Shown here: positions 13,619-42,287 of the stretch, in pieces | Layout of the letters: each line of letters begins with the position of its first letter | Numbering within the stretch: position 1 is the stretch's first letter | DNA from: Candidatus Aminicenantes bacterium | GTDB lineage: Bacteria; Acidobacteriota; Aminicenantia; Aminicenantales; UBA4085 | Length of the DNA stretch: 64,000 bases | NCBI GenBank assembly: GCA_022866045.1 | Contig: JALHTW010000049.1 | Location: 11,041 to 75,040, forward strand | Reading direction: 5' to 3' | Notes under the pieces: model-generated | Seen by the model: the letters and a program-made list of their open reading frames with translations, nothing else | Told to the model about the DNA's origin: nothing | Databases searched by the model: none | Program-made: the position numbers and the translations under genes

Positions 13619-14283
13619 ATCAACAAAGCCGGGAGAATCCTCTTTCGAGAATCTATCCCCGGGTCCGGCTGGGAGACAAGTCCCAGATCGGCGACTTCTG
13701 CGTCATCGGCCTCCCCGCCGGCGGCCATCAACCCGGGGAAGTGGAAACCATCATCGGCGACGACGCCATCATCCGCTCGCACACCGTTATATATGCCGGA
13801 AACAGGATCGGCTCCGGGTTCCGCGCGGGACACGGCGTCCTCATCCGCGAGGACAACCAGATCGGTCATAACTGCAGCATCGGCTCTCACACGGTGATCG
13901 AGCATCACCTCCAAATCGGGAACGGTGTGCGCATCCATTCCCAAGCGTTCGTCCCGGAATTCACGATCCTGGAAGACGGGTGCTGGATCGGTCCGAACGT
14001 CGTTTTCACCAATGCCTATCATCCCTTGTGCCCGAAAGTTAAGCAATGCCTCAAAGGAGCCACGGTCAAGCGGGGAGCCAAGGTCGGCGCCAATGCGACG
14101 ATTCTGCCCGATTTGGAGATCGGGGAGTTCGCCCTTGTCGGCGCCGGCGCCGTAGTCATTGGCAATGTGCCCGCTTACTCCGTTGTTGCGGGCAATCCGG
14201 CCAAGGTCGTCAAGAAGATCGCCGATCTGACCTGCCCCTACGACTTGATCGATCATCCCTATCCCATGAAACCGGAGAAATAA
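13613..14283 (+). CDS. left-handed beta-helix hexapeptide-repeat N-acetyltransferase (WbpD-like)
   Basis: Repeated [LIV]G-x-x-x-x hexapeptide units, for example [22 protein letters not shown] and IGPNVVFTN. Confidence 0.7.
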
Positions 14284-26783: not shown

Positions 26784-28049
26784 TTGGGAAAAAGAATCGT
26801 CAGCAAAATTGGACTTCGACCCTGGCTGGGAGTTCTCTGTTGTTCCGTGGCCATTTACCTCACCGTTCCCCTGGCGAGAAGGATCCAAAGATTTGTTTAC
26901 GTGAGATGGGGAAGAGAGGTCTTTCTCTATTTTGTCTTGAGTGTCCTGGCTCTCGGCTTTCTCATCTTGCTCTCCGTCTTGATCGTCAAGTTGAAGATCA
27001 AGACTCCATCCAACTACATCTGGCTGCTGATCACGGGCGGGCTGTATGCTTATTTCGCCCTGCAATTAAAAAGTTCTCCGGAAGAGGCCGTTCATTTTCT
27101 TGAATACGGGTTGCTGGGGTATTTCCTTTTCCGGGCCCTCAATCTTTCCATCAGGGATAAGAGCGTTTATCTCTCGGCCACCCTTTTTGCCCTCCTGATC
27201 GGGACCTTCGACGAGATCCTCCAATGGATCATTCCTTTGAGATATTGGGATTTCCGCGATGCGGGTCTCAACGGTCTATCGGGAGGATTGTTCCAATTGG
27301 CTGTCTGGAAGGTGGTCAAGCCGAAGACCACGCGGGATAAATTTTCGAGAAGAAGCTACCGGACCCTGACCATCATTTTCAGCGTCTGTCTAGCCCTCTT
27401 TGCTCTCTGCGCTTCCAATACTCCAAAGAGAGTCGCCGTCTACACAAGGTGGCTCCCCATTTTATCCTTCCTGCAAAAGGAAGAACCCATGAGCGAGTTC
27501 GGATTCAAGCACAGAGACCGGGACATCGGCATATTCTACTCCCGGTTGAGTCTCGCCGAGCTCAAAAAAACCGACGCAACCCAGAGTGATTATTGGGCCC
27601 CGATTCTCGATACCTCCAAGGATATCCGGTATGATGATTTTTTGGCAAAATATCCTCCCCTGACATTCCCCTTTCTTTATGAGCTCCGGGTTCACACATA
27701 CCGCAGGAACACTTATTATGGAAAGGCCGATTCGGCCTCAAGCCCCAAAGACAGAAAGGAGTTCTGCTGGATTGCCTACAAAGAAGACCTTATTTTAAGG
27801 AAATATTTTTCCCAGACCTATGCCAAGTCGCTCTACAGATGGGATGATAGCGTTTTTTCGAACATCTGCGGAGCCGTGGATAAGTCCAAACCCTATAAGA
27901 GCGCGGTTAGCGCGAGACTGATCACCGCCTTCTCCGAAAGAACGATGTGGGCGGTCGTATTGAGCGTCATCCTGATTCTCAATATAATCAATAGGATATG
28001 GAGATTCCAGGAACGTAGACGGGAGAGCCCTCGCCAGCCAGTTTCTTAG
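26784..28049 (+). CDS. VanZ-like domain membrane protein with C-terminal extension
   Basis: Four N-terminal TM helices with the EEAVHFLEYGLLGYFLFRAL motif typical of the VanZ family. Confidence 0.4.
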   Translation: MGKRIVSKIGLRPWLGVLCCSVAIYLTVPLARRIQRFVYVRWGREVFLYFVLSVLALGFLILLSVLIVKLKIKTPSNYIWLLITGGLYAYFALQLKSSPEEAVHFLEYGLLGYFLFRALNLSIRDKSVYLSATLFALLIGTFDEILQWIIPLRYWDFRDAGLNGLSGGLFQLAVWKVVKPKTTRDKFSRRSYRTLTIIFSVCLALFALCASNTPKRVAVYTRWLPILSFLQKEEPMSEFGFKHRDRDIGIFYSRLSLAELKKTDATQSDYWAPILDTSKDIRYDDFLAKYPPLTFPFLYELRVHTYRRNTYYGKADSASSPKDRKEFCWIAYKEDLILRKYFSQTYAKSLYRWDDSVFSNICGAVDKSKPYKSAVSARLITAFSERTMWAVVLSVILILNIINRIWRFQERRRESPRQPVS

Positions 28050-28086
28050 GTTTGAGACAGGCAGAATTTGATATAAGGATGATGGA

Positions 28087-30147
28087 ATGAACAAAAACAA
28101 GAGACACCGGCTTCTTCTCGGGTTCACGCTCCTCCTTTACGTCGGTGGTTTCACTCTTTTTTATTCCCGATATGTCCCGCTCCTAAAATCCTTTCAGATC
28201 GCTCTTGTCGTTCCTCTCCTCATCAATTTCATCCTGGCCTGCCTGAAAAAGGAATGGGGAATTCTCTTCTTTGTCGGGGCCTTCCCTTTGATCAATAATC
28301 TTCCCTATATGTTCGGCATCTTCGAGACTTCTCCCCATGCCCCGACGGCCCTCGTCCTGTTTTTGGCCTTCTTCCTGGGATACCTCATCAATCAGATGAT
28401 CCATCCGGCCGAAGCCGAAAGTCCCGGGAATCCTGATATCCTGAAACCCCTCCTCCTGTACTCGGGGGTCATCGCGGCTTCCGGGATCATCACGTTCATC
28501 AAGTATGCCAACTTCACGCCTCTCCTGTCGGACCGGATCTACGAACTCATCGTCAACACCAACATGGTCACGGCGGGCGGGGCCCTGATGAGCGTCGTCT
28601 TCAATTCGCTGAATTATCTGACCGGATTCCTTTTTTTCTTCATCCTGGCCAAATCATTGAAGACCAGAGAATTCCTGAACGCTGCCCTCGTTCTTCTTTC
28701 CCTATCGACTTTCATCGCCCTCGTCTTTTCCCTTGTTCAAAAATTTCTTTCCCTCTCCCTCGGGAATACGCCTCATTGGATTAATGCCCAACAAATCAAT
28801 GCTACGTTCAAGGACCCGAATTCGTTCGGGGTTTTTCTCTCCTCGTGTCTCCCCTTGTTTCTTGGCCTAGCCTTCTTCGGCTCCAAAGCGATGAGGTTGT
28901 TCTCCTCCGTCCTTATCGTTTTTTCCCTCTTCGTTTTTCCTTCGATCGGATCGCGAAGCGCCTTCCTCGGGCTTATCACGGCGTTCGGTCTTTTCTTTCT
29001 CTTGACCTTCCTCAAAGGAGGATTCGTCAGGAAAAAGGGCACTCATTTAGCCGTCATTCTGACGATCGCCCTTGTCGTCATCGTCGTGGCCGCCGTTTTA
29101 TTCAGGAACACCAAGCTGTATTCCCGACTCAGCTCAAACGTGAAAGACCTCAGGACAAATTTCTCCGTCAACCTCCTGTTCTCGGGGAAGCCGGGTTTCT
29201 GGTCCGTGGCGTCCCGCATGGCCGGAAGCTATCCCCTTACGGGAGTCGGCATCGGAGGTTTCATTGTCGAATTGCCGAACTATTACAAATTGAAGGGCCT
29301 CCCCCTGGATCAAACGGATGCCGCGGAAAACTATTTGTTTCAAGTTTGGTCTGAGCTGGGGTTGCTCGGTCTTCTCCTGGTTTTTTGGCTGTTCGTGACC
29401 ATCATCAAAGAGATGAGAAAAAGCTTTTCAAGAATTCCCCGCGGCGATAAGTCCATATTCCTACTCAACGGAGCCATCGCCGGCGTCGTTTCCTTTTTCG
29501 TCAATTTCCAATTCCATACCTACATCGGAAGCTATGAGGCAAAATATATGTTCTGGTTCCTTGTGGGGATCATCTTTGCTCTTGGCCGAATTTATCAGAA
29601 GCCTGAGGAGGAAGAAGAAAAGAATCTATTCAGCATAAAGTTCAAAATCGCCGGAGCGATTCTCATCCTGACTTTCGCTTCCGTCCATCTCTGGAACTCC
29701 GCTCATTCTCTCTCCCTCAAAACCAGCACGGCCCGATACGGCCTCCAGCAGGATTTCGGCGTGGACAAGCTGGAAAAAACGGATGACGGGCGGGAATTCC
29801 GCTGGACCCGAAGCTACGGCGGCCTGACCCTCAAGGTCGAAAAGCCGGTCATGGAGATTTCCCTCCTCGCCTCCCATCCGGATATCCGGAAAAATCCCGT
29901 CCGGGTGAAGATCTACATCGTCAAAGGTTTCTTTAAAGAGAAAAAGCTTTTAGCCGAGCTCACACTCAAGTATAGCATCTGGGAAAAGTACGAATTTTCC
30001 ATTCCGGAAGATTTAAATCAGACCGTGATCCTCCTCATCAAAGTGAGCCGGACGTGGAACCCCCTCAAGACATTCGGCACCCCGGACCCCAGGAATCTGG
30101 GGGTGGCCGTCGGTCCGATTCAGTTTAAAGATAAATCCGGCCCCTAA
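28087..30147 (+). CDS. large polytopic membrane protein, putative O-antigen ligase/polymerase-like (Wzy_C-like) with C-terminal periplasmic domain
   Basis: About 12 TM helices over ~500 aa, then a soluble ~170 aa tail. Last plus-strand gene of the glycan locus. Confidence 0.35.
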   Translation: MNKNKRHRLLLGFTLLLYVGGFTLFYSRYVPLLKSFQIALVVPLLINFILACLKKEWGILFFVGAFPLINNLPYMFGIFETSPHAPTALVLFLAFFLGYLINQMIHPAEAESPGNPDILKPLLLYSGVIAASGIITFIKYANFTPLLSDRIYELIVNTNMVTAGGALMSVVFNSLNYLTGFLFFFILAKSLKTREFLNAALVLLSLSTFIALVFSLVQKFLSLSLGNTPHWINAQQINATFKDPNSFGVFLSSCLPLFLGLAFFGSKAMRLFSSVLIVFSLFVFPSIGSRSAFLGLITAFGLFFLLTFLKGGFVRKKGTHLAVILTIALVVIVVAAVLFRNTKLYSRLSSNVKDLRTNFSVNLLFSGKPGFWSVASRMAGSYPLTGVGIGGFIVELPNYYKLKGLPLDQTDAAENYLFQVWSELGLLGLLLVFWLFVTIIKEMRKSFSRIPRGDKSIFLLNGAIAGVVSFFVNFQFHTYIGSYEAKYMFWFLVGIIFALGRIYQKPEEEEEKNLFSIKFKIAGAILILTFASVHLWNSAHSLSLKTSTARYGLQQDFGVDKLEKTDDGREFRWTRSYGGLTLKVEKPVMEISLLASHPDIRKNPVRVKIYIVKGFFKEKKLLAELTLKYSIWEKYEFSIPEDLNQTVILLIKVSRTWNPLKTFGTPDPRNLGVAVGPIQFKDKSGP

Positions 30148-30250
30148 ATTCTTCCCGCTTTTTGACGCCCTTCCCTGTTATTTCTCCCACTTTTAAGAAA
30201 AGAGAGGAGGCTTTTAGTCTCGAGAAATAATCCCATCCAAATACATTAGA

Positions 30251-30280
30251 ATGAGCGGCCTACGGGCCGCTCATTTTTTT
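30251..30280. terminator. bidirectional rho-independent terminator between convergent genes
   Basis: Perfect 10-bp stem atgagcggcc/ggccgctcat with a 4-nt loop, followed by TTTTTTT. Lies between the 3' ends of genes at 30147 (+) and 30319 (-). Confidence 0.75.
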
Positions 30281-30318
30281 ATGCCGGGCCTGTTCCAGGG
30301 CCGGGAGGCGTGTCTTTG

Positions 30319-31257
30319 TCACTGAATGTTCATCCTATTCCAGGCAACGGTTCGTCGAAGCCCTTCTTCGAACTCAACGGACGGTGTGTAGCCCAAGAAT
30401 TGTCCGGCCATGGACACATCGGCCAGGGAATGCTTGACGTCGCCGATCCGGGTTTGGGCATGTCGGGGAGTAAGGGCCGTTCCCAAGATCCGGTTCAACT
30501 TATCCACCAATTCTAAAAGGGAATATCTCGCTCCGCAGGCAATATTGAACACGCGACCTGGCGCATGAATGGCCTTGATCGCCAGCAGGTTTGCTTCAAC
30601 GACGTTCGCGACATAAGTAAAATCCCGGGATTGGCTTCCATCGCCGAAAATCGTCGGCCTTTCGTTCTTGAGCATGGATTTAATGAACAGCGGGATGACC
30701 GCGGCGTATTGCGAATCCGGATTCTGCCGGGGGCCGAAGATGTTAAAATATCGGAGGCATACGGTCTCCAGCCCGTAGACGCTGTGAAAGACCCGGCAGT
30801 AATACTCGCCTGCCAGCTTGGAAACGGCGTACGGCGAATATGGATTGGGAGGTATCGTCTCTATTTTCGGCAGCGTCGGCGTATCGCCGTAAACGGAGGA
30901 GGACGAGGCATAAACGACTCTCTTCACCGAAGCGTCCTTAGAGCACATCAGCAGGTTGAGCGTTCCGGCGACGTTGGTCTCGTTTGATGAGACCGGGTCT
31001 TTCACCGAACGTGAAACAGAGGCCAAGGCGCCAAGATGCAGAACATAATCCACACCGTCCACGGCCTTTCGGACCATCGCCGGGTCTCGAAGATCCCCTT
31101 CCTGTAATTCGATAACGTTCATGAACGGCGCCAGGTTTTCCCTGCGCCCCGTCGAAAAGTTGTCAAGCACCCTTACTCGTTCGCCTTGCTTCAGCAGCTC
31201 CTCAACGATATTCGATCCGATGAAACCGGCTCCGCCCGTGACCAGATACAAAGCCAT
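30319..31257 (-). CDS. UDP-GlcNAc/UDP-GlcNAcA 4-epimerase (WbpP/TviC-like extended SDR)
   Basis: MALYLVTGGAGFIGSNIVEELLKQGERVRVLDNFSTGRRENL closely follows the WbpP/TviC N-terminus. YAVSK catalytic motif. Confidence 0.75.
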   Translation of the reverse strand: MALYLVTGGAGFIGSNIVEELLKQGERVRVLDNFSTGRRENLAPFMNVIELQEGDLRDPAMVRKAVDGVDYVLHLGALASVSRSVKDPVSSNETNVAGTLNLLMCSKDASVKRVVYASSSSVYGDTPTLPKIETIPPNPYSPYAVSKLAGEYYCRVFHSVYGLETVCLRYFNIFGPRQNPDSQYAAVIPLFIKSMLKNERPTIFGDGSQSRDFTYVANVVEANLLAIKAIHAPGRVFNIACGARYSLLELVDKLNRILGTALTPRHAQTRIGDVKHSLADVSMAGQFLGYTPSVEFEEGLRRTVAWNRMNIQ

Positions 31258-31643: not shown

Positions 31644-31952
31644 ATGTCAAAGTACGAAGCGCCAATCCTTGTCCCCTTAGGGGAGATCGCCAAAGGGTCT
31701 GGAGTCTGTTCAGTTGGAACTGCAGTTGTCGGCGGCAACTGGGGCGGAATCGGTACCTGTACTGTGGGTGCTTGTTTTGATGCCCTCTTTCCTGGAATAA
31801 CTGATTGTACGGCGGGTCCTAATGCAACACAGGATTGCTCGGCGGGTCCTACAGCAAATCGGGATTGCACGGCCGGCACTTGCGCACTCAGGGATTGCAC
31901 GGGCGGTACTGCTGCAACAGATGTGACTTGCTCGGCAGGCGGGGCTGTATAG
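31644..31952 (+). CDS. Cys/Gly-rich repetitive RiPP-like precursor peptide (102 aa, 9 Cys)
   Basis: Strong SD sequence; first gene of an operon with PqqD-like and rSAM/SPASM genes. C-terminal half consists of D-C-(T/S)-A-G-x-x-A-x-x decapeptide repeats. Confidence 0.6.
   Translation: MSKYEAPILVPLGEIAKGSGVCSVGTAVVGGNWGGIGTCTVGACFDALFPGITDCTAGPNATQDCSAGPTANRDCTAGTCALRDCTGGTAATDVTCSAGGAV
31797..31946 (+). repeat. 30-nt in-frame tandem repeats (4 full + 1 partial) inside the precursor ORF
   Basis: gattgtacggcgggtcctaatgcaacacag / gattgctcggcgggtcctacagcaaatcgg / gattgcacggccggcacttgcgcactcagg / gattgcacgggcggtactgctgcaacagat / gtgacttgctcggcaggcggggctgta. Confidence 0.85.
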
Positions 31953-32186
31953 GTACTTTATTATAGCAGATTGCACTGCCGGCAGCGGCATGTAAGAGAC
32001 CGCATGACGGCCTACCTGGCTCTTTAATGCTATTTCGGCGAGAATGATTTTTCCAAGCCGAAAGCAGCGTTAGGCTTGAGAGCGATATTTTCTGGAACAA
32101 TCGCTCAAGACCGAGGGGACTCATCTTTTTGGCGGGATGTCAAGCGGCGTTGTTGCCACGAATGAAATAAATGGAGGAAATGATCC

Positions 32187-32474
32187 ATGAATCAAACGGA
32201 CAGACCGATTGCCAATCCCATCGTTGTGCTCCGGGAGGAATTCGATGACTGGGCCGTACTCTTCAATCCCGATACGGCCGAAGCCGTGGGAACCAATCCC
32301 GTCGGTGTAGCGGTATGGAAACGGATGGACGGCAAGAGGAGCATCGAGGATATAGCGGCGGAGATCAAAAACAGCTTTGAAGACGCTCCGGACGCCGCCT
32401 TCAAAGAGATCGCCGCCTTCGTTAACAGGCTTGCTGAAAACGGTTTTGTGGGGCTGGAACTGGAGAGCAAATAG
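32187..32474 (+). CDS. PqqD-family peptide chaperone (RiPP recognition element)
   Basis: 95 aa with W-x-x-(L/M)DG-x-R-(S/T)-x-x-(D/E)-I core (VWKRMDGKRSIEDIAAEI) and C-terminal FVNRLAENGFV. GGAGG RBS. Confidence 0.75.
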   Translation: MNQTDRPIANPIVVLREEFDDWAVLFNPDTAEAVGTNPVGVAVWKRMDGKRSIEDIAAEIKNSFEDAPDAAFKEIAAFVNRLAENGFVGLELESK

Positions 32475-32477
32475 CGG

Positions 32478-33608
32478 ATGCCCGAGGAACTCAAGGACAA
32501 GACAGAACCAACGGTGTCAAAGGTTATGCGTACCCCGCGCAGCCTGATCATTGAAATCACCTCCCGCTGCAATCTGCGCTGCCGCTACTGCTACTTCTTC
32601 AACAACCCGGCGATGGTTTACCGGGATCTGCCTGCCAACGAATGGCTCACCTTCTTCGACGAACTGGGGTCGCTCGGCGTGATGAAAGTCACCCTGGCAG
32701 GCGGAGAGCCGTTTATCCGGGAGGACCTGCCCGTACTCCTTGAGGGTATTGTCCGCAACCGGATGCGCTTCTCTTTCCTGTCCAATGGCGGGCTGATCAA
32801 CGATGAAATCGCCGCTTTCATGGCCGGCACAGGCCGCTGTGAGTATGTTCAGGTGTCGGTGGATGGTTCGTGCGCAGAGGTCCACGACTCCTGTCGCGGG
32901 CAAGGCTCTTTTGACGGTGCGATACGCGGCATTCGCACCCTGCAGCGCCATCGGATTAGGGTGGCAGTGCGGGTCACGATTCATCGGAACAACGTGCATG
33001 ATTTGGAGAACATCGCTCACTTTCTTCTGGATGAGCTGGGCCTGCCGGATTTCGGCACTAACTCTGCAGGATACATGGGCACGTGCTGCGGGAACGCGGA
33101 TGATGTGCTGCTGAACATAGAGGAACGGAAGGAGGCCATGGCGACCTTGCTGCGCCTCACGGCGAAATACGATGGACGCATCTCGTCAAACGCCGGCCCA
33201 TTGACGGATGGGCGCATGTGGCGCCGGATGGAGGAGGCACGGGCACAGGGCAAGCCGGCCTTTCACAACGGTGGCCGCCTCACCGCGTGCGGCTGTCCGA
33301 ACAACAAGATCTCCGTGCGCGCCGATGGCGCAATCGTTCCCTGCAATATGTTAGCCCATGTCGAATTAGGGCGCATCAACCATGATTCTCTGGCAGAAAT
33401 ATGGCAAAACAGCCCGGCTCTGAACCAACTCCGCAACCGACATTCGATCCCGTTGACCGGGTTTGAGTTCTGCGCCGGTTGTTCATACATCCCTTATTGC
33501 ACAGGCAACTGTCCGGGATTGGGCTACACGTTAACAGGTATGGTTGACCATCCCAGTCCGGATGCTTGTTTGCGCCGCTTTCTCGAGGAAGGTGGGGCCA
33601 TCGCATGA
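32478..33608 (+). CDS. radical SAM / SPASM-domain peptide-modifying enzyme
   Basis: CNLRCRYCYF (CxxxCxxC) near the N-terminus, GGEP motif, and a C-terminal Cys-rich SPASM region (CGCPNN...PCN...CAGCSYIPYCTGNCPG). Confidence 0.85.
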   Translation: MPEELKDKTEPTVSKVMRTPRSLIIEITSRCNLRCRYCYFFNNPAMVYRDLPANEWLTFFDELGSLGVMKVTLAGGEPFIREDLPVLLEGIVRNRMRFSFLSNGGLINDEIAAFMAGTGRCEYVQVSVDGSCAEVHDSCRGQGSFDGAIRGIRTLQRHRIRVAVRVTIHRNNVHDLENIAHFLLDELGLPDFGTNSAGYMGTCCGNADDVLLNIEERKEAMATLLRLTAKYDGRISSNAGPLTDGRMWRRMEEARAQGKPAFHNGGRLTACGCPNNKISVRADGAIVPCNMLAHVELGRINHDSLAEIWQNSPALNQLRNRHSIPLTGFEFCAGCSYIPYCTGNCPGLGYTLTGMVDHPSPDACLRRFLEEGGAIA

Positions 33609-34765
33609 GCATTTTGAGCGATATGAAACAGCGGAAGACGGGACAGGCTGGAATGCGGACGATCAACACTTTGTATTTCTACTTGACCGAAGGGTGTAAC
33701 CTCGCCTGCCGCCATTGTTGGATGGGTCCCCGGTTCGACGCCACAGGCAACCATTATCCCACCCTGCCGGTTGAGTTGTTCGAGACGGCCATCCGTGAAG
33801 CCAAGCCTCTGGGGCTGAGTGGTGTCAAACTTACCGGCGGCGAGCCGTTGTTGCATCCCCACTTCACTCGTTTGCTGGAGATTGTCCGGCGTGAAGAGTT
33901 GAAGCTGACGATCGAGACCAACGGCCTGCTGTGCACGCCGGAGATCGCCGCTGAGATCGCCAAATCTCCCAACCGATTCGTATCCGTAAGTATCGACGGA
34001 ACTGATGCAGCGACCCACGAATGGGTGCGCGGTGTACCGGGAGCCTTTGAAGCGGCCCGCCAGGCGGTGCGCAGCCTTGTGGCCGCCGGCACCAGGCCGC
34101 AGATCATTTTCACGGTGATGCGCAGCAATGCCGGCCAGGTGGACGCCATGGTCCGAATGGCCGAAGAACAGGGTGCGGCCTCACTCAAGTTCAACGTGGT
34201 GCAGCCCACGGCACGAGGCGAGAAGTTGCATGAAAACCAGGAGACCCTGAACATCGGCGACCTCATCGAGTTGGGGCGGCACGTGGAACAGGAACTGGCG
34301 CCTAAGACCAAGTTGAAGATCTTCTTTCATTACCCACACGCTTTTAGAGCCCTCCATCGCATCGCCAGCGGGGATGGGTGCAGCGCCTGCGGGATCTTCG
34401 GCATCCTGGGCGTCATCGCCAGCGGACACTATGCCCTGTGCGGGATCGGCGAGCAGGTGCCGGATCTGATCTTTGGCGCGGTAGGGAAAGCCAGGCTGGA
34501 AGAGGTATGGCGAGAAAACGCCATCTTGAAGGCTCTCCGGGAGGGACTGCCCGAGCGACTGGAAGGGGTCTGCGGTCGGTGCCTGATGAAAGGGCGCTGC
34601 CTGGGCGCGTGCATTGCCCAGAACTACTACAGCAAGGGCAGCCTGTGGGCGCCATACTGGTTCTGTGAACAGGCGGAAGAAGCGGGTCTCTTTCCAACGT
34701 CACGTCTGGGAACAAGACCTACACAGTCTCCACTTATCACTATCGGCAATGCCGCTTCAGAATAG
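33605..34765 (+). CDS. radical SAM / SPASM-domain peptide-modifying enzyme (second copy)
   Basis: CNLACRHCWM, GGEPLLHP, and SPASM cysteines (CSACGIF...CG...CGRCLMKGRCLGACIA). ATGA overlap with the upstream rSAM. Confidence 0.85.
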   Translation: MSILSDMKQRKTGQAGMRTINTLYFYLTEGCNLACRHCWMGPRFDATGNHYPTLPVELFETAIREAKPLGLSGVKLTGGEPLLHPHFTRLLEIVRREELKLTIETNGLLCTPEIAAEIAKSPNRFVSVSIDGTDAATHEWVRGVPGAFEAARQAVRSLVAAGTRPQIIFTVMRSNAGQVDAMVRMAEEQGAASLKFNVVQPTARGEKLHENQETLNIGDLIELGRHVEQELAPKTKLKIFFHYPHAFRALHRIASGDGCSACGIFGILGVIASGHYALCGIGEQVPDLIFGAVGKARLEEVWRENAILKALREGLPERLEGVCGRCLMKGRCLGACIAQNYYSKGSLWAPYWFCEQAEEAGLFPTSRLGTRPTQSPLITIGNAASE

Positions 34766-36311
34766 TAACGGGAATGTCCCGGGGGCCATGTTCTTCGCTG
34801 CTTATGTCGGCCCGAGCATGAATCCGACTCTGCGCGAGCCGGAGATCATGGAGATCCTGCCTTATGACAAGAGGCCCTTGCGCGTTGGCGATGTGGCCTT
34901 TTTTCTGCCACCGGAGGCTGATCAGCCGGTCGTACACCGCATTATACGTGTGACCCCCGCAGGTATATCCACACTCGGTGACAACAACACCCAAGAGGAT
35001 ACTCTTCTCTTGCAGCCAAAGAGCATTAAAGGCCGGGTGGTGGCCGCCTGGCGTGGTCAAAAGCGGCGGAAGATCGCGGGCGGGTACCAGGGCCGGTTGA
35101 TAGGCCGCTGGCTTCATTGGCGACGCGTCCTTGACCGTGGCGTGTCTCCTCTGCTGCACCCCCTTTATCAAGCCCTATCTCACTGGGGATTGATCGCCTG
35201 GGTGTTGCCTGCTCCATTCCGGCCGCGAGTCGTCGTTTTCCAGGCCCAAGGTCGGGATCAGTTTCAGCTTCTGCTGGGACAGCGTATCATTGGGCGATAT
35301 GATGACCACAGGCATCAATGGCAGATCCAACGACCCTTTCACTTGTTTGTGGATGGAAGGGCGCTTCCAAGTAAACAGGATAGGGACCGAGTGAACCGGA
35401 AAGTTTTGACTGAACGGCGACGAACCATGAACCATCTACTGACGCAGGGAGTGCGGCATGACCTCGTCCTGGCTGATGGGAGTCATTGGGAAATTGCCGC
35501 CGAGGACAAGGAGGCCGCATCCATCGTTTCACAACTGGGATGCGCGATGCAGTTGCGCATGACACCAGGCGCAATCGAACCTTCTCATCACGGCAATCTG
35601 TGCCGACTGCTCGTCCAGGTTGACGCACAGACGTCCGTGGCGGATTGCTATGTCCCGTTGGCATCAGAAAATGACGGCGTCGTGGTCTGCATTCTAAGTC
35701 CATGCGATCACTGGGGCGGCCCGTTCGTCAATCTTATGAGATTATCGCTCGTCTTTGCTCGCGAAGCGCAGGCCCATGGAGGAGTCCTCATACACGGTGC
35801 GCTCTCTGAACGGGACGGCAGCGGTGTGATCCTGGCTGCGCCGGGCGGGGCGGGAAAGACCACGGCCAGCAATCGGCTTCCGGCCCCGTGGCGCTCGCTG
35901 TGCGACGATACCACGCTGGTGGTGCGGGACCCGCAAGGCAACTACTGGGCGCACCCCTGGCCCACCTGGAGCCGTTTCCTGGACGGGGGACCGGGCGGTA
36001 CGTGGGACGTGCAGAGCGCTGTGCCTCTCAAGGGCATCTTCTTCCTGGCCCAGGCGGTTGAAGATCGGGTGGAACGGGTAGGCCCCGGGCATGCGGTCAG
36101 CCTGCTCGGGGAGTGCGTAGGACAGGCCTCAATGTTCATGCCACTGGGCCTATTAAAAGAAGAACTCCGCGCCCTGCATCTGGAACGGTTCAATAACCTT
36201 TGCGCCTTGGCCCGGGTCGTACCCGCACACTTGCTTTACATCAGCCTGACCGGTACCTTCTGGCAAGAGATCGAGCAGGCGCTTGAGGGAGGACATTGTG
36301 AAGACACGTGA
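34749..36311 (+). CDS. fusion protein: N-terminal S26/S24-type (signal-peptidase-I-like) peptidase domain + C-terminal HprK-related P-loop kinase-like domain
   Basis: N-terminus VGPSMNPTLREPEIMEILPY...VGDVAFF...VVHRIIRV (SPase I box B GxSMxPTL). C-terminus GGVLIHGALSERDGSGVILAAPGGAGKTTASNRL resembles the HprK C-domain Walker A. Start at ATG 34749 is inferred. Confidence 0.55.
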   Translation: MPLQNSNGNVPGAMFFAAYVGPSMNPTLREPEIMEILPYDKRPLRVGDVAFFLPPEADQPVVHRIIRVTPAGISTLGDNNTQEDTLLLQPKSIKGRVVAAWRGQKRRKIAGGYQGRLIGRWLHWRRVLDRGVSPLLHPLYQALSHWGLIAWVLPAPFRPRVVVFQAQGRDQFQLLLGQRIIGRYDDHRHQWQIQRPFHLFVDGRALPSKQDRDRVNRKVLTERRRTMNHLLTQGVRHDLVLADGSHWEIAAEDKEAASIVSQLGCAMQLRMTPGAIEPSHHGNLCRLLVQVDAQTSVADCYVPLASENDGVVVCILSPCDHWGGPFVNLMRLSLVFAREAQAHGGVLIHGALSERDGSGVILAAPGGAGKTTASNRLPAPWRSLCDDTTLVVRDPQGNYWAHPWPTWSRFLDGGPGGTWDVQSAVPLKGIFFLAQAVEDRVERVGPGHAVSLLGECVGQASMFMPLGLLKEELRALHLERFNNLCALARVVPAHLLYISLTGTFWQEIEQALEGGHCEDT

Positions 36312-36393
36312 GACACGATCAGCAAGAATGAATCAGAATCAAAGCAGCAGAGCGCTGGATGATTACATTTAATTATGCAAGAGCAGGTTAATT

Positions 36394-38214
36394 ATGCAAG
36401 AGCAGGCTGAATCGATAAAACTGAAAATACAACGCGCCCTACAGCTTGGTCGCGCCGTGCGTTTTGTCTGGCAGAGCGCGAAAAGCTGGACAATAGCGAA
36501 CGGGGCTCTCATTGTGGTCCAAGGAATATTGCCGTTACTCCCGCTGTATCTCATGAAGCTCATGGTGGACGCCGTGACCGCGGGGCTGGCGGCTCCTGAC
36601 AAAGGGGCCGCTCTTAGACACGTGCTGTTGCTTGTTGGCTTTATGGGGGCAGCAACCCTGTTTGCCTTCTTGATCCGCCTGATAGCGGGACTGGTTAGCG
36701 AATGGCAGGGTTACATTGTCACGGATCACATGAACGACGTCCTCCTTGCCAAGTCCATTGAGGTAGATCTGGAGTATTACGAGAGTGCGCGATACTACGA
36801 CACCCTTCATCGCGCCCAACGCGAAGCCCCTTATCGCCCTATGAATATCGTTAATGGTTTGGCCCAGATTGGTCAGAACGGAATCTCGCTGCTGGCAATA
36901 GCAGGACTGCTCGTGTCATTTCATTGGCTCATCGCGGCAATCCTATTCACTGCCGTTATTTCCGGGACCGCAGTGCGATTAAGATATACCCGCAAGATGT
37001 ATCGCTGGCAACGTGAGCAGACATCCACGGAACGGCAAGCCGGCTACCTCAATTGGATTCTCACCGACAGCAGCCACGCCAAGGAAATCCGCCTGTTTGA
37101 CCTTGGACCTCTGTTCATGCGCCGGTTTCGCGATATCCGCCGGAAACTCCGCAAGGGAAGGCTGGCCATCACGCGCAGGCGTTATATCGCTGATTTTGCG
37201 GCTCAGACCTTTGCCACCGCGGCCATCTACGGTTCGTATGCTTATGTTGCTTCTCAGGCGGTGTGGGGGAAGATCACGTATGGTGATCTGGTGATGTATT
37301 ATCAGGCATTTCAGCGCGTCCAGGGATTTCTTCAGGGGATATTGGGCAGTCTGGCAGGACTGTATGCAGACAACCTGTTCCTTTCAAATCTCTACGAGTT
37401 TCTTGATCTGAAACGTACAGTCATCGAACCGGCTCATGCCAGCCCTGTGCCTCAGCCGATGCAACGCGGCATCGTGCTGGACCATGTGAGTTTTCAGTAT
37501 CCCACAGGCACCAGAAAGGTTTTTGAGGATATTTCCCTCACCATCCGGCCGGGAGAAGTGGTGGCTTTGGTGGGTGAGAATGGCTCGGGTAAGACGACTT
37601 TGATCAAGTTGTTGTGTCGATTGTACGATCCGACAGGTGGGACCATTACCATCGACGGGGTAGATCTGCGCCAGTTTGAAACAAAAGCGTTAAGACACGA
37701 AATCGCTATCATTTTTCAGGACTATGCCCACTACCATCTGACGGCCCGAGAGAACATCTGGTTTGGGAATACCGCCCTTCCGCCCGACCATGAACGTGTC
37801 ATCGCCGCTGCGCGCCGCTCGGGGGCTGACGACGTCATCAGCGCGTTGCCTCATGGCTATGATACGATTCTGGGAAAGTGGTTCGAGGACGGGGAGGAAC
37901 TAAGCATTGGCGAGTGGCAGAAAGTGGCCCTGGCCCGCGCCTTCATGCGCGATGCACAGATCATCGTCCTTGACGAACCGACAAGCTCTATGGACGCCAA
38001 GGCGGAATATGAGGTCTTCAAGAGTTTTCGCCAACTGGTGTCCGGTCGAACAGCCATCCTGATCAGTCATCGCTTTTCCACCGTCCGGATGGCCGACCGC
38101 ATTTATGTGCTGAAGCATGGAAGCATCATCGAAGGTGGCACCCACGAAGAGCTCCTTCGCGTGGGAGGAACCTATGCCCGGTTGTTCGAAATGCAAGCCC
38201 AGCATTACCGGTGA
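36394..38214 (+). CDS. ABC exporter, fused permease + ATPase (type I exporter, no peptidase domain)
   Basis: Six N-terminal TM helices. Walker A GENGSGKTTL, signature LSIGEWQKVALARA, Walker B IIVLDEPTSSMD. Confidence 0.9.
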   Translation: MQEQAESIKLKIQRALQLGRAVRFVWQSAKSWTIANGALIVVQGILPLLPLYLMKLMVDAVTAGLAAPDKGAALRHVLLLVGFMGAATLFAFLIRLIAGLVSEWQGYIVTDHMNDVLLAKSIEVDLEYYESARYYDTLHRAQREAPYRPMNIVNGLAQIGQNGISLLAIAGLLVSFHWLIAAILFTAVISGTAVRLRYTRKMYRWQREQTSTERQAGYLNWILTDSSHAKEIRLFDLGPLFMRRFRDIRRKLRKGRLAITRRRYIADFAAQTFATAAIYGSYAYVASQAVWGKITYGDLVMYYQAFQRVQGFLQGILGSLAGLYADNLFLSNLYEFLDLKRTVIEPAHASPVPQPMQRGIVLDHVSFQYPTGTRKVFEDISLTIRPGEVVALVGENGSGKTTLIKLLCRLYDPTGGTITIDGVDLRQFETKALRHEIAIIFQDYAHYHLTARENIWFGNTALPPDHERVIAAARRSGADDVISALPHGYDTILGKWFEDGEELSIGEWQKVALARAFMRDAQIIVLDEPTSSMDAKAEYEVFKSFRQLVSGRTAILISHRFSTVRMADRIYVLKHGSIIEGGTHEELLRVGGTYARLFEMQAQHYR

Positions 38215-38245
38215 AGGCTTGATGATCTCGGAGGCGTAAAAAAGT

Positions 38246-39526
38246 ATGCCAGATTTTTTTAAGGAACGCAGCGTGACCATGGATAAGCGGTATACCGGAG
38301 ACGGCAAAAATACTTTGAAGCGCATTCTTGACTTATCGTGGCGAATTTCTGTCTATGCGCCTCCAATGAAGCCATTTATCCGCTTCTCGAAGCACGCAGA
38401 TACACTATACAAGGGAAAAACAAACAGCTACAAACATTTCTTCTGGGATTTCGACGACGCTTTGCAGAGGGTTCTTTTAGGCATGGCCCGTACCATAGCA
38501 ACACCCTCGGAGATTGCTGAAGCGTGCATCGAACGATGGAAAATTAACCTTGAGAAGTTCTACCAAAGAAGGAAGAGACAATTGGAAGAGTTGCGAAAAA
38601 ATGGCGAGGTTCCCCAATTTCGATACACGCCGCGCAACGAGTTTATCTTCTCACGGGTTGAGCCTGGCAGCCGCTTGCTTTATGTAGGATGTGGCACTGG
38701 AACAGAATGCCTCGGCTTGGCGCAGAGAGGCTATGAGGTTATCGGAATTGATACGGACGAACAACTGATTGAGATTGCAAATGAGTGGGCGGAATATCTT
38801 AAGCTTCCTTTTCAGGCAGTTTGCATGGATGCTGACAACATCGGTTTTTCGCCAGGATCTTTTGATGGCTTTTTATTGGAATTTTATGGATTTCAGTCTT
38901 CCCTGGTTCAGGCGTTGGCTCTTCAAAGAGGCCTCGCAAGTGTACTGAATGACAATGGAAAAGGGTTTATCTCAGCACCCCGCAAAAAATATGCCTCTCT
39001 CTGGTACAGGATGCCGAATCTTGGGTATCCAGAATCCATGTTTCATTGGCTGACAAGCCAATGCCGATTGGACCACTACTTTTCACAGATGGATGCGTGT
39101 GAAGAGAAGCTCGCTTTTGGACTGTATATCCGGAGCCATACTGTAGACTCTCTGTCTCGCGAATTGGGTGGCGTTTTCGATGTGCAAGAATGTATGTATG
39201 AAAAATATGATCCGCGCTATCTGATAAGTGTGGTCAAAAGAAAGGGCCGTTTTTCGGATTCATCCCCGACCTCAGAGAATGACGATACCGAGGATTGGAC
39301 AAAGCAGGAATATCTGCAAAGGGAGGGGGTGTCCATTGAAGATGTCTTGTACGAGATTCACGCTATTTGCGATCTACTTGAATTACAGAAGGAGAGAGTC
39401 GAGCGGTTTTTCCTCAATGGTGATGTTTCTGGGGGAAAAAGCCCTCTATCCATGGTGGATACGGATCTTCCAAGGTTTATCGAGCTTCTCGAGCATACCT
39501 ACGGAATGCGGCCCTTCCGCTCTTAG
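38246..39526 (+). CDS. class I SAM-dependent methyltransferase with N-terminal accessory domain
   Basis: LLYVGCGTGTECLGLAQRGYEVIGIDTDEQLIEIA (motif I plus acidic loop). Lower GC than the rSAM genes. Confidence 0.65.
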   Translation: MPDFFKERSVTMDKRYTGDGKNTLKRILDLSWRISVYAPPMKPFIRFSKHADTLYKGKTNSYKHFFWDFDDALQRVLLGMARTIATPSEIAEACIERWKINLEKFYQRRKRQLEELRKNGEVPQFRYTPRNEFIFSRVEPGSRLLYVGCGTGTECLGLAQRGYEVIGIDTDEQLIEIANEWAEYLKLPFQAVCMDADNIGFSPGSFDGFLLEFYGFQSSLVQALALQRGLASVLNDNGKGFISAPRKKYASLWYRMPNLGYPESMFHWLTSQCRLDHYFSQMDACEEKLAFGLYIRSHTVDSLSRELGGVFDVQECMYEKYDPRYLISVVKRKGRFSDSSPTSENDDTEDWTKQEYLQREGVSIEDVLYEIHAICDLLELQKERVERFFLNGDVSGGKSPLSMVDTDLPRFIELLEHTYGMRPFRS

Positions 39527-39540
39527 GGGGGAATATAGAA

Positions 39541-39692
39541 AAAGAGTGTCACGCTTGTCGTTAGCAGCCAAACGTCGCCAAATAGGTGTCAACCTGTTTT
39601 CCGCTGTATCTCGTGAAGTTCATGGTGGACGCCGTGACCGCCAGGGTGTTTACGCTGACCTCTTTGAGAAGCAAGCCCGGTCCTATCGTTAG
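39541..39692 (+). pseudogene. collapsed remnant of a second ABC exporter paralog (5' fragment joined out of frame to last 16 codons)
   Basis: 39601-39643 is ~95% identical to 36541-36582 of the ABC gene. 39644-39692 encodes GVYADLFEKQARSYR*, versus GGTYARLFEMQAQHYR* at the ABC C-terminus. Confidence 0.6.
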
Positions 39693-39715
39693 CCGCAAGA
39701 ACTGGAGGACTTATC

Positions 39716-40963
39716 ATGGAACAAAGAGAAGCGGGCAGACTTTTATGCGATTTTCTTTCAGGTAGAAAAATACCAGAAGCCAGGCTCGAAAAATTATCGC
39801 CGGCTGATGGGGAGAGTCTGGCAGACTTGGCGCTGCGTTTTAAAGTGGGGGGGTTGTTCTATCGGGAAATAAAGTCCCGTAACATTCCGACTGAGCTTAT
39901 CCCGGTTGATGTCAGAAACAGACTCAGGGACGCCTACCGCAACCTGGCCACTGTGAACACGAGTCTTTTTCTTGATGCCTCAAAAGTTCTTAAGTCTCTG
40001 GCCGACAATCAACTGCCGGTCATTGCGCTCAAAGGTCTTTCGCTGGCAAAAAATATCTATGGTGATATCGCTTTAAGACCAATGTCCGATATGGATCTTT
40101 TAGTGAAAGAAGAAGATCTGGTCAGGGCCGGCCGGATACTGCTGGCTCTTGGCTATAAGCCGCATTTTTCTGCTTGGGAGAGCATGTTGAAGACTCGCCG
40201 TCATTTGCCGCCTTTTACGAATAAAAGCGGGGCGATGATAGAACTTCACTGGAATATTGTGACTCCGGATAGCCCCATTGAAGTAGATCTTGACGGGTTG
40301 TGGGAGAGAGCGTGTCTTATCAAAGTGGATAATGTCGAGGTCCGGGCTTTTTCTCCGGAGGATTTATTTTTACATTTGTGTATCCATGCTGGTCATCATC
40401 TGCAGACCGGAATAGACTTGATTCCTTTCTGTGATATGGCCGGATTGATAAAAACATCCGGAGATAAAATCGACTGGCAAATAGTCATTGAGAGGGCCAC
40501 CCGGTGGGGCGGCCAAAAGTGTGTTTACCTGATGTTGCTTCTGGTCCGGGAATTGCTGGGAGCGGCGCCGCCGGATAAAATTATGTCAGAAATAAAACCC
40601 GATGATTACCGGTCTGTTTTTTTTGATGAAGCCCTGGAACAGATTTTTGATGTAAGCCCGGCAGGTCAGCTGTTTAGAATAAGAATCGGCAAACTTTCAA
40701 AAATAAAAAAAGTTAAAGGGATTAGAGGTAAAGTTTTGGCTCTTTTAAAAGGAGTTTTTCCGTCAAGGGAGAATCTGGCCCGCATCTATCCGGTGTCGGT
40801 TTCTTCCCCGAAGATATATCTGTGTTATTTATTTCGCCTGGGCCGCATGATTGTCTACTATACGATTGTGCTTCTTCGGTTATTCCGCCGTGATCAATCG
40901 GTTATAAAAGCGGTCCATCAGGAGCATCGGGTGAGCGCGGTTTCCGACTGGATGTTTTCATAA
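39716..40963 (+). CDS. nucleotidyltransferase-family protein (PF14907-like, HPr-rel-A-system-type NTase)
   Basis: Pol-beta-like motif GDIALRPMSDMDLLVKEED (hG..x9-13 DxD). About 415 aa. Sits in a neighbourhood with PqqD-like and HprK-like genes. Confidence 0.5.
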   Translation: MEQREAGRLLCDFLSGRKIPEARLEKLSPADGESLADLALRFKVGGLFYREIKSRNIPTELIPVDVRNRLRDAYRNLATVNTSLFLDASKVLKSLADNQLPVIALKGLSLAKNIYGDIALRPMSDMDLLVKEEDLVRAGRILLALGYKPHFSAWESMLKTRRHLPPFTNKSGAMIELHWNIVTPDSPIEVDLDGLWERACLIKVDNVEVRAFSPEDLFLHLCIHAGHHLQTGIDLIPFCDMAGLIKTSGDKIDWQIVIERATRWGGQKCVYLMLLLVRELLGAAPPDKIMSEIKPDDYRSVFFDEALEQIFDVSPAGQLFRIRIGKLSKIKKVKGIRGKVLALLKGVFPSRENLARIYPVSVSSPKIYLCYLFRLGRMIVYYTIVLLRLFRRDQSVIKAVHQEHRVSAVSDWMFS

Positions 40964-41147: not shown

Positions 41148-42287
41148 TTAAGCTGCGATTTTCTTTTTATTTTTTTTGAGATATTCCAAGAAAAACGTGA
41201 GGAACCCAAAGATGGTCAAACCAATCAGGCCGGCGATTAACACATTCATTTTTTTCTTTGGCGCTACTGGACCTGGAGATGGCGTTGGTTCTTTTATGAG
41301 CTGGGCATAGTCGATTCTCGTTTTTCGTTCGATCAGGAGCTCGATCTGTTTTTTGAAGTTTTCCGTAGAGTTGCTGATCTTAGCGGCAGCATTTTTGTAC
41401 TTTTCAATCTGGGCGTCGATTTCCTTAAGATTTTCAGTTTTTATTTTAATCTCTAACTTCAGGGACTCTTGAAGGTTTTTTTCCACGCTCAAATTTCCGT
41501 CGAGTGTACCGTAATACTGGAGGTTGCTCTGGACATAGCTCATATATAAAAGCAGGCCGATGGATTCTCCCGTTTCGCGTTGTTCCGCCAAGGTTTTTTT
41601 TAGCTGTTCCTCTAAGGCTTCCATTCTTTTTTTGACGGATCCCATTTCTTCAGAAATGTTTTTGGCACGCTCTTCGGAAATATTTATTCTATTTTCATCC
41701 GTCGATATTTCCTGCCTGGTTTTCGTCTTTTGAATGTCCAAGAGCTTGATTTCATTGTAGTTATCTTTGATTATCAACTCATTTTGTTTGATGGCATTTT
41801 CGTTTGAGGCGATCTGCGTATCGAGACCCTTGATTTGCACGTCGAGTTTTCTGTCCAGCTCATTTTTGAGATGTCGGAAAAGAGAATTTAATATCTTAAT
41901 TCCTCGGTCGATATTGGAGTCCCTTATCCAAAACCTCACAAGCTTTGTGTCCTTGAGGTTCTCCGCTTTAATGGCGGATAATGTTCTGGGGTCGAGATTT
42001 AATTCCGCGGCGATAAGGTCACTGTAGGCATGCTGATTGATTTGGCCGGCGATCTGTCTTGGGTCAACGACGAGGACCTCTAAAAATTGGACATTCTCAG
42101 CCTGAACGTAAAATTTACTGGGCTGGATGATGGCGTCGACTTCCCAGACAGGAGTTATAAAAAAGCTGACGATCCCCGCTGTAACCGCAATAATAAGCGT
42201 TGGGACGATGATCATCCATTTTCTTCTCCAAAGGACTTCCAAATATTCCATGAGATTGATTTCTTCATTATGCTCGGTCTCGTTCAT
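41148..42287 (-). CDS. wzz: Wzz / polysaccharide co-polymerase chain-length determinant
   Basis: N-terminal EINLMEYLEVLWRRKWMIIVPTLIIAVTAGIVSFF TM helix, long coiled-coil periplasmic region, C-terminal TM helix. AT-rich. Confidence 0.7.
   Translation of the reverse strand: MNETEHNEEINLMEYLEVLWRRKWMIIVPTLIIAVTAGIVSFFITPVWEVDAIIQPSKFYVQAENVQFLEVLVVDPRQIAGQINQHAYSDLIAAELNLDPRTLSAIKAENLKDTKLVRFWIRDSNIDRGIKILNSLFRHLKNELDRKLDVQIKGLDTQIASNENAIKQNELIIKDNYNEIKLLDIQKTKTRQEISTDENRINISEERAKNISEEMGSVKKRMEALEEQLKKTLAEQRETGESIGLLLYMSYVQSNLQYYGTLDGNLSVEKNLQESLKLEIKIKTENLKEIDAQIEKYKNAAAKISNSTENFKKQIELLIERKTRIDYAQLIKEPTPSPGPVAPKKKMNVLIAGLIGLTIFGFLTFFLEYLKKNKKKIAA

Follow-up and report, generated by a model that had tools for sequence, protein, structure and literature searches.

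A SynChlorMet cassette with a fused Sec11/SipW-type peptidase and ScmC/HprK-like module, a predicted leader peptidase and peptide kinase

The DNA analyzed here, hereafter the window, is a stretch of 64,000 nucleotides from contig JALHTW010000049.1 of a Candidatus Aminicenantes bacterium. On its forward (+) strand an uninterrupted open reading frame (ORF) of 520 codons with an ATG start (34749..36311) encodes a protein of 520 amino acids (aa), in which an S26B-type peptidase module is joined to a ScmC/HprK-like module. According to NCBIfam, the locus is a complete SynChlorMet (SCM) cassette with ScmD, ScmE, ScmF and the ScmC module. Upstream of the fusion gene and on the same strand lie ScmD (32187..32474), a PqqD-family recognition element (RRE) for ribosomally made peptides with post-translational modifications (RiPPs; TIGR04248 108.5 bits, cutoff 100; Pfam PqqD E 5.8e-15), and two radical SAM (rSAM)/SPASM maturases, ScmE (32478..33608; TIGR04250 559.7 bits, cutoff 400; Pfam Radical_SAM and SPASM) and ScmF (33566..34765, TTG start; TIGR04251 531.4 bits, cutoff 400). 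An earlier inspection of the letters (the sequence-only reading) had described the gene as an unusual fusion of an S26/S24 peptidase with an HprK-related P-loop domain. Both domains were confirmed by profiles and folds, and the ORF is uninterrupted in 25 loci. The fusion is not unusual, as it represents the standard form of a large clade annotated as ScmC, and reverse-order fusions are common too.

The ATG at 34749 and the end of ScmF at 34765 give a 17-nucleotide (nt) overlap of the two genes, as had been noted for the upstream rSAM gene. At least 17 related loci show the overlap with ScmF as well; in them the ScmF alignment extends 14 nt beyond the first codon of the fusion. An alternative, longer reading of the fusion ORF begins at a TTG at 34614, and in two homologues the protein begins at the residue that corresponds to Met14 (MFFAAY...) of the fusion; with a start at Met14 the ScmF overlap would vanish. 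We regard the start at 34749, on which the 17-nt overlap depends, as probable without being certain. From the coordinates given above, an overlap of 43 nt (33566..33608) results for ScmE and ScmF; since the TTG-initiated ORF does not match the ScmF family before aa 33, the true ScmF start probably lies further downstream. No 19-residue window of the fusion protein exceeds a Kyte-Doolittle mean of 1.44, a hydrophobic N-terminal segment is absent, and the protein is predicted to be soluble. A search of the full-length fusion against the local Pfam library gave no match; all homologues P0001-P0120 carry the precomputed Pfam domain PF27840.1, which may already describe part of the protein.

The peptidase catalytic domain comprises aa 1-100 (34749..35048, + strand) and was assigned by profile and fold matches. 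The motifs GPSMNPTL (aa 21-28), VGDVAFF (aa 46-52) and VVHRIIRV (aa 61-68) were found where the sequence-only reading had placed them, within the beta-fold common to LexA and signal peptidases. The catalytic residues correspond to those of the S26 Sec11/SipW subtype, with its GxSMxP serine, (V/I)HR histidine and GDNNxxxD aspartate, namely Ser23 in GPSMNP (34815-34817), His63 in VVHR (34935-34937) and Asp84 in GDNNTQED (34998-35000). All three are invariant in the close homologues of the fusion and are largely kept across diverse relatives, represented by 50%-identity clusters (Ser in 59, His in 61 and Asp84 in 62 of 66). Against sequences of the PDB, the fusion sequence alone matched human SEC11C with E 0.003 and an aligned triad. 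A profile of 28 diverse peptidase modules sharpened this result considerably, with SEC11C (E 7.4e-13) and SEC11A (E 2.7e-12) as top PDB sequence matches, followed by bacterial signal peptidase (SPase) I with E 1.4e-5. Among the 28 module copies, Pfam Peptidase_S26 was found in 20 and Peptidase_S24 in 11. The same profile aligned by hhalign with LppS, taken from Supplementary Data 1 of PMC13381572, with a probability of 96.6% and E 5.7e-10, and S23, H63 and D84 pair with S29, H68 and D93 of LppS. In an AlphaFold2 (AF2) model of the full-length fusion, based on 81 close homologues, the N-terminal 230 aa remained below 60 in predicted local distance difference test (pLDDT); an AF2 model of the N-terminal module rebuilt with the 28 diverse sequences reached a pLDDT of 90.3.

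A Ser-Lys dyad of the bacterial LepB/LexA type, which had been expected from the motifs, was rejected because the position of the general base is occupied by His63 of the VHR motif, as in Sec11, SipW and LppS; the triad is Ser-His-Asp. Model inspection bears out the peptidase fold and the HprK/PEPCK P-loop fold (PEPCK, phosphoenolpyruvate carboxykinase), but not the Ser/Lys dyad. A true secretory signal peptidase was likewise rejected. Within the whole protein the Kyte-Doolittle profile shows no membrane segment that would anchor the active site outside the cytoplasm, and the module should therefore be a cytoplasmic peptidase. It shares its fold and the GxSMxP, HR and GDNNxxxD motifs with the Sec11/SipW (S26B) enzymes, but differs from them in the missing transmembrane anchor, in its predicted cytoplasmic location and in its predicted substrate, a RiPP leader instead of a Sec signal peptide.

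The catalytic domain is followed by a mid module (aa 101-220, 35049..35408, + strand) consisting of a long basic helix (112-146) and a small SH3/Tudor-like beta-barrel (159-193). Where the modules are separate, the mid module always accompanies the peptidase domain and never ScmC. In three reverse-order fusions the catalytic Ser is replaced by Ala (P0152, P0154) or Asn (P0159), and in P0152 and P0154 Arg also takes the place of the catalytic His, with the remaining module kept. Judging from these substitutions, the three proteins are possibly pseudo-peptidases that retain a binding role.

The second half of the fusion, aa 236-513, is the counterpart of an entire ScmC protein as it occurs on its own (270-310 aa). 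Its N-terminal subdomain (aa 236-330, 35454..35738, + strand) can be aligned with the N-terminal part of such stand-alone proteins, and the P-loop domain of HprK/PEPCK fold (aa 331-513, 35739..36287, + strand) was recognized by profile and fold matches. The fusion scores 187.7 bits against the ScmC model TIGR04249 (cutoff 125); the match covers aa 329-512 and profile positions 109-292 only, and positions 1-108 do not match the N-terminal subdomain. The Walker-A arrangement of HprK type that had been noticed in the letters, GGVLIHGALSERDGSGVILAAPGGAGKTTASNRL, is present at aa 344-377. Key residues of the domain are His349 (35793-35795), the Walker-A Lys370 (35856-35858) and Asp386-Asp387 (35904-35909), and the family motif HPWPTWS occupies aa 402-408 (35952-35972). 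In 81 close homologues, H349, K370, D386 and D387 show no exchange; among diverse relatives the His is found in 140 of 142 and the Lys and both Asp in 139 of 142 each (~98%). HPWPTWS is nearly invariant among ScmC relatives and specific for the family.

In the full-length AF2 model the C-terminal module has a pLDDT of 70-95, and most of the ScmC N-terminal subdomain lies between 70 and 90. A Foldseek search with the C-terminal module returned PEPCKs with E ~1e-8, which rank above HprK as top structural matches. PEPCK and HprK have one common fold, so that this ranking is no argument against a kinase. A profile of 61 ScmC sequences searched against the PDB gave four entries of HPr kinase/phosphorylase (HprK/P) as best matches (E 1.4e-3 to 9.6e-3), and HG motif, P-loop and Asp-Asp pair are matched in the alignment. 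Pfam Hpr_kinase_C was found in 17 of the 61 members, and the likeness of the fusion to NCBIfam HprK_rel_A is confined to the P-loop region (aa 340-391, E 3e-6). H349, K370, D386 and D387 are the counterparts of the His-Lys-Asp-Asp motif of lasso-peptide kinases (PMC9266682), where this motif is essential according to the mutagenesis summarized in PMC9266682, citing Zhu et al. 2016. Domain searches of both halves thus placed the N-terminus in the S24/S26 fold instead of a non-peptidase fold, and the P-loop half in the ScmC family, which has no other known function, instead of an unrelated ATPase.

The distribution of the fusion was followed in a search of 5.8 billion proteins (E<=1e-3) and in a genome scan of 80 loci, which were compared by gene maps. 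A total of 714 protein clusters match the fusion. The 120 matches listed are full-length fusions of 489-570 aa with 71-89% identity and at least 94% query coverage, and many full-length homologues are already named 'SynChlorMet cassette protein ScmC' in public databases. The 80 loci stem from metagenome-assembled genomes (MAGs) of Acidobacteriota, Syntrophia and other Desulfobacterota, Verrucomicrobia/Lentisphaerae, Chloroflexota and Brocadiaceae, and also from archaeal MAGs of Methanothrix and Methanoregulaceae. In 25 of them the peptidase precedes ScmC in one protein, as in the window; in a further 17 this order is split into two ORFs, some by evident frameshift errors. The reverse order, ScmC followed by the peptidase, occurs as a fusion in 10 loci and as separate adjacent genes in 13. 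Taking both orders together, 30 of the 80 loci have the two modules as separate neighbouring ORFs, and only in a handful does ScmC lack a nearby peptidase. The proportions are different in a census of architectures among the best 150 representatives of 50%-identity clusters, which comprise 81 stand-alone ScmC proteins, about 58 reverse-order fusions, two fusions in the order of the window and seven stand-alone proteins of peptidase plus mid module. Since fusion took place on at least two occasions, with opposite orientations, and the modules otherwise lie side by side, the sequence comparison indicates that peptidase and ScmC work together. In practice the peptidase module belongs to the conserved components of the cassette, but it is not reflected in the SCM family names.

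As a separate observation, the cassette proteins are 80-90% identical across MAGs of different phyla (L001-L052 compared with 31644..40963 of the window). Such cassettes were seen, among others, in Acidobacteriota, Syntrophobacteraceae, Terriglobia, Victivallales and Chloroflexia, and their flanking genes are not shared. This suggests that the cassette was recently transferred horizontally or that contigs were mis-binned.

Upstream of ScmD, the window contains a Cys-rich ORF of 102 aa (31644..31952, + strand), which is the candidate precursor peptide (ScmA-like). Its leader reads KYEAPILVPLGEIAKGSG, and its core consists of C[TS]xG repeats spaced by ~10-11 residues. No family match to this ORF was found in NCBIfam and Pfam scans. 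Because it is Cys-rich and homologous small ORFs with a common leader occupy the same position in 36 related cassettes, it is likely, on sequence grounds, to be the precursor. The leader consensus of the SCM precursors is KYESPILVPLGEMAKGSG-x-C-x-x-G-S, in which Y, P, L-G and G..G are invariant among the 36 precursors, and it bears the RRE-binding motif [Y/W]xxPx[LVIFA]. An invariant KGxG sits 13-16 residues past the Tyr of YxxP, and its small residues G-x-G occupy the position expected of an SPase-type site. The hypervariable cores consist of C[TS]xG units; 175 of 256 precursor Cys are followed by [TS]xG, and 150 intervals between Cys show the spacing of 10-11 residues. In some precursors long poly-Gly or (Thr-Gly)n low-complexity inserts separate the first CxxGS motif from the C[TS]AG repeats (L012, 4731..5216 and 13240..13864; L017, 4871..5227; L021, 4597..5316). 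The second precursor-like region of L012, ~8 kb on, is broken into two overlapping ORFs.

Downstream of the fusion, and all on the + strand, follow an MsbA-like ABC exporter of 606 aa (36394..38214; best NCBIfam match TIGR02203; Pfam ABC_membrane and ABC_tran only), a SAM-dependent methyltransferase (38246..39526; Pfam Methyltransf_25 and Methyltransf_11) and an NTP_transf_5 protein (39716..40963; PF14907 E 1.8e-59), a putative nucleotidyltransferase of LppN/PsmN type. NCBIfam and Pfam scans revealed no peptidase (C39) domain in the exporter and no further protease in the cassette besides the fusion peptidase. ScmD, ScmE and ScmF lie immediately upstream of the fusion, and the same cassette order recurs in most of the 80 loci; in most related loci an NTP_transf_5 gene lies downstream of the exporter. 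The methyltransferase is an accessory gene found in some loci only (L004, L009, L011, L021, L029, L032, L036). Between methyltransferase and NTP_transf_5, an exporter remnant was detected at 39601..39689, of which 39601..39641 (41 nt) is 95% identical to 36541..36581 and 39645..39689 encodes GVYADLFEKQARSYR, resembling the C-terminal GTYARLFEMQAQHYR of the exporter. Exporter fragments lie likewise 3' of the methyltransferase gene in L011 and L036. This collapsed second exporter copy suggests that the methyltransferase was acquired by an insertion or duplication event.

The cassette is flanked by polysaccharide and envelope genes (26784..31257 and 41148..42287). These include a VanZ-like gene (28.4 bits, just under the Pfam threshold), a Wzy_C O-antigen-ligase-like gene and, both on the - strand, genes for an NAD-dependent epimerase and a Wzz chain-length determinant. 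As none of these genes is conserved across the 80 SCM loci, the polysaccharide context is peculiar to this window.

The closest characterized counterpart of this locus is found in the linear polyphosphorylated peptide (LPP) clusters of Bacillota, which encode LppS, LppK, LppB, LppN and LppD (Popov et al., Nat Commun 2026, PMC13381572). In these clusters LppS is a SipW-like signal peptidase I, LppK an HprK-like kinase, LppB an RRE, LppN an NTP_transf_5 protein and LppD an MsbA-like exporter, and the published domain tables list the families PqqD, NTP_transf_5, TIGR02228 and TIGR02203 (PMC13381572). LppK polyphosphorylates Ser3 of the precursor core and does not accept Thr; leader removal by LppS, 16 residues past the leader Tyr, requires presentation by LppB, is lost in the S29A, H68A and D93A mutants and is nearly abolished by deletion of lppK (PMC13381572). 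According to the same authors, signal peptidase I (SpI)-like peptidases had not been seen earlier in RiPP pathways. Of the 152 genes labelled 'HprK kinase' in the LPP data set, the tables class 67 as TIGR04249, 65 as TIGR04352 and 11 as TIGR04355. In several LPP-only neighbourhoods TIGR04249 is the sole kinase class, and in the P. alginolyticus neighbourhood it is one of two kinases.

All five families, that is, the SpI-like peptidase, the RRE, the HprK-like kinase, the NTP_transf_5 protein and the MsbA-like exporter, are encoded within 32187..40963 of the window. The YxxP leader motif and the Ser-His-Asp triad of the peptidase are common to both systems, the polysaccharide context of LPP clusters (VanZ, epimerases, polysaccharide synthases) resembles the flanks of this window, and the coupling of cleavage and phosphorylation established for LPP may, by analogy, apply to the fusion. 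However, peptidase and kinase form one polypeptide here and are the separate proteins LppS and LppK there, and the SCM peptidase has an extra helix and SH3-like module. Two rSAM/SPASM maturases are integral to the SCM cassette, whereas the term 'Radical SAM' does not occur in the LPP paper and its examined supplements (PMC13381572). The SCM core is a Cys-rich C[TS]xG repeat, the LPP core a linear peptide with Ser3. From the LPP leader consensus YxxPxVLxHQxIxFETxxS the SCM leaders have the part YxxPx[LVI] only, and the remainder VLxHQxIxFETxxS is absent. Finally, SCM cassettes occur in Desulfobacterota, Acidobacteriota, Chloroflexota, the Verrucomicrobia/Lentisphaerae group and methanogenic archaea, and LPP is said to be confined to Bacillota. 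Owing to these six differences we did not file the SCM locus as an LPP cluster. We describe it as a radical-SAM (SynChlorMet) branch with a fused peptidase-kinase, akin to LPP but distinct.

The other known systems are further away. With respect to the ScmC family as defined by TIGR04249, the C-terminal 285 aa of the fusion score above the family cutoff, as the neighbouring ScmD, ScmE and ScmF do for theirs; however, the model describes a stand-alone protein with 292 positions, and the N-terminal 220 aa of the fusion lie outside every SCM model. The lasso tailoring kinases PadeK, ThcoK, SyanK and PsmK are HprK-related and phosphorylate the precursor before leader removal (PMC9266682). They share with ScmC the His-Lys-Asp-Asp motif and partners such as a PqqD-type RRE, an NTP_transf_5-type protein (PsmN) and an ABC exporter, but the SCM cassette contains neither a lasso cyclase nor a B2 protease and its precursors have no conserved C-terminal Ser. 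The nearest precedent is the LPP system and not, as in the sequence-only reading, the lasso peptides. From HprK/P and PEPCK, the module differs by marginal sequence similarity, another N-terminal subdomain, the HPWPTWS motif, which is absent from both, and a context of peptide maturation instead of carbon catabolite control. The fusion is not an HPr kinase/phosphorylase proper, as neither membership of Pfam Hpr_kinase_C or TIGR00679 nor the HprK N-terminal domain was found.

The computations presented here establish the domain folds, the conservation of the catalytic residues, the gene neighbourhood and the repeated occurrence of both modules fused or side by side. The kinase and peptidase activities are inferred, as are the order of the steps, the residue that accepts the phosphate, the site of cleavage and the reactions of ScmE and ScmF. 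On the basis of the sequence comparisons and the analogy to LPP, we consider it fairly probable that the fusion is a bifunctional cytoplasmic enzyme that serves a RiPP pathway of SynChlorMet type as leader peptidase and as peptide kinase. In such a pathway the PqqD protein ScmD would bind the YxxP leader of the precursor, and ScmE and ScmF would cross-link its Cys-rich C[TS]xG repeat core. The C-terminal ScmC domain would phosphorylate a Ser or Thr of the precursor with ATP at its His-Lys-Asp-Asp/P-loop site, and the N-terminal Ser-His-Asp peptidase would cut the leader in or just past the invariant KGxG, 15-17 residues after the Tyr of YxxP. The MsbA-like pump would export the product, which the NTP_transf_5 and methyltransferase proteins may decorate further. 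The proposal that peptidase and kinase act on one precursor, already put forward from the letters, has an experimental precedent in the unfused homologous pair LppS/LppK, and by analogy to this pair the fusion would hard-wire phosphorylation-dependent cleavage.

Several observations weigh against this assignment. Taken alone, the fusion sequence stays below the cutoffs of TIGR02228, the archaeal-type signal peptidase I (E 4.9e-9, 36.3 bits, cutoff 51.85), and of Pfam Peptidase_S26 (PF10502, 16.9 bits, cutoff 22.9), it does not match Pfam Hpr_kinase_C, and the HprK match of ScmC to PDB sequences is weak (E ~1e-3). The SCM peptidase is devoid of the N-terminal helix by which LppS docks on its RRE, and the similarity of ScmD to LppB by BLASTP is not significant (E 0.53), so that no specific RRE relationship can be claimed. 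A literature search for 'SynChlorMet' retrieved no paper on the cassette, nor did one on ScmC, ScmE, ScmF and the TIGR numbers retrieve any relevant paper. The weakest point of the kinase assignment is the acceptor. The position equivalent to the LPP acceptor, core Ser3, is a Cys in SCM precursors, the first CxxG[ST] motif provides, at C+4, the best conserved hydroxyl residue (in 34 of 36 precursors; Thr in the window), and a conserved C-terminal Ser is absent from SCM precursors, which end in V, A, G, Q and others. Because of this weak acceptor case we kept the alternative that the peptidase is genuine but ScmC is an ATP-binding regulatory or scaffolding module, which gates cleavage, organizes the rSAM enzymes or phosphorylates a non-peptide acceptor; the ATP-dependent cleavage by lasso B-proteins is a comparison for such a gate. 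Its own HPWPTWS motif, the extra N-terminal subdomain outside the HprK profiles and the PEPCKs as top structural matches, ahead of HprK, also speak for this alternative. On the other hand, the His-Lys-Asp-Asp set is 98% conserved, the fold is common to PEPCK and HprK, and TIGR04249-class proteins are the kinases of LPP clusters, where peptide phosphorylation has been shown (PMC13381572). On balance we regard a ScmC that is not a peptide kinase as unlikely, though by no means negligible.

That the N-terminal module is instead a catalytically irrelevant or non-leader-directed S24/S26 domain, for example a LexA-like self-cleaving regulator, a SipA-like chaperone or a peptide-binding adaptor, with the leader cut by another protease, appears improbable. 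Ser, His and Asp are kept in ~90% or more of the diverse relatives, the profiles favour the catalytic SEC11 subunits, the LppS homologue is a proven leader peptidase of a soluble pathway with the same triad, and the cassette encodes no second protease. Even less can be said for an artefact of assembly or gene calling, with the modules being separate genes in this genome, which we consider highly improbable: split ORFs do occur in the 17 related loci with the peptidase first, with clear frameshifts in the L026 and L034 assemblies, but the ORF of the window is uninterrupted, the encoded protein recurs in one piece in 25 genome loci and in hundreds of independent metagenome clusters, and the region linking the two modules is conserved among the homologues.

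The protein itself is already present in databases as ScmC; the value of the finding lies in a testable function and in the natural single-chain form of a recently found enzyme pair. ScmC, a conserved hypothetical protein in thousands of public sequence clusters, thereby gains such a function, a SipW-like peptidase module is added to the components of the SynChlorMet cassette, and a likely precursor family with a YxxP leader and a C[TS]xG-repeat core is identified. The enzymology is already known from separate proteins and no new biochemical principle is involved. Nevertheless, the so far uncharacterised cassette is linked to the phosphorylation logic of LPP and paeninodin described in 2026, and the fusions in both orientations provide Rosetta-stone evidence for a physical unit of kinase and leader peptidase, which supports the genetic observation from LPP that cleavage depends on phosphorylation. 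As LppS is poorly soluble, the natural single-chain construct might also ease biochemical and structural work. In a wider sense, we put forward tentatively, with rather less confidence than the assignment of the two activities, that the peptidase-kinase pair may lie, as a conserved hub, at the centre of a separate RiPP class of very wide distribution, in which phosphorylation would license cleavage within one polypeptide. Its products would be rSAM-cross-linked, phosphorylated C[TS]xG-repeat peptides, possibly glycosylated, nucleotidylated or methylated, made by anaerobes of many bacterial phyla and by methanogenic archaea. If this is true, SynChlorMet would be the radical-SAM branch of the phosphorylated-peptide family and would extend this family far beyond Bacillota.

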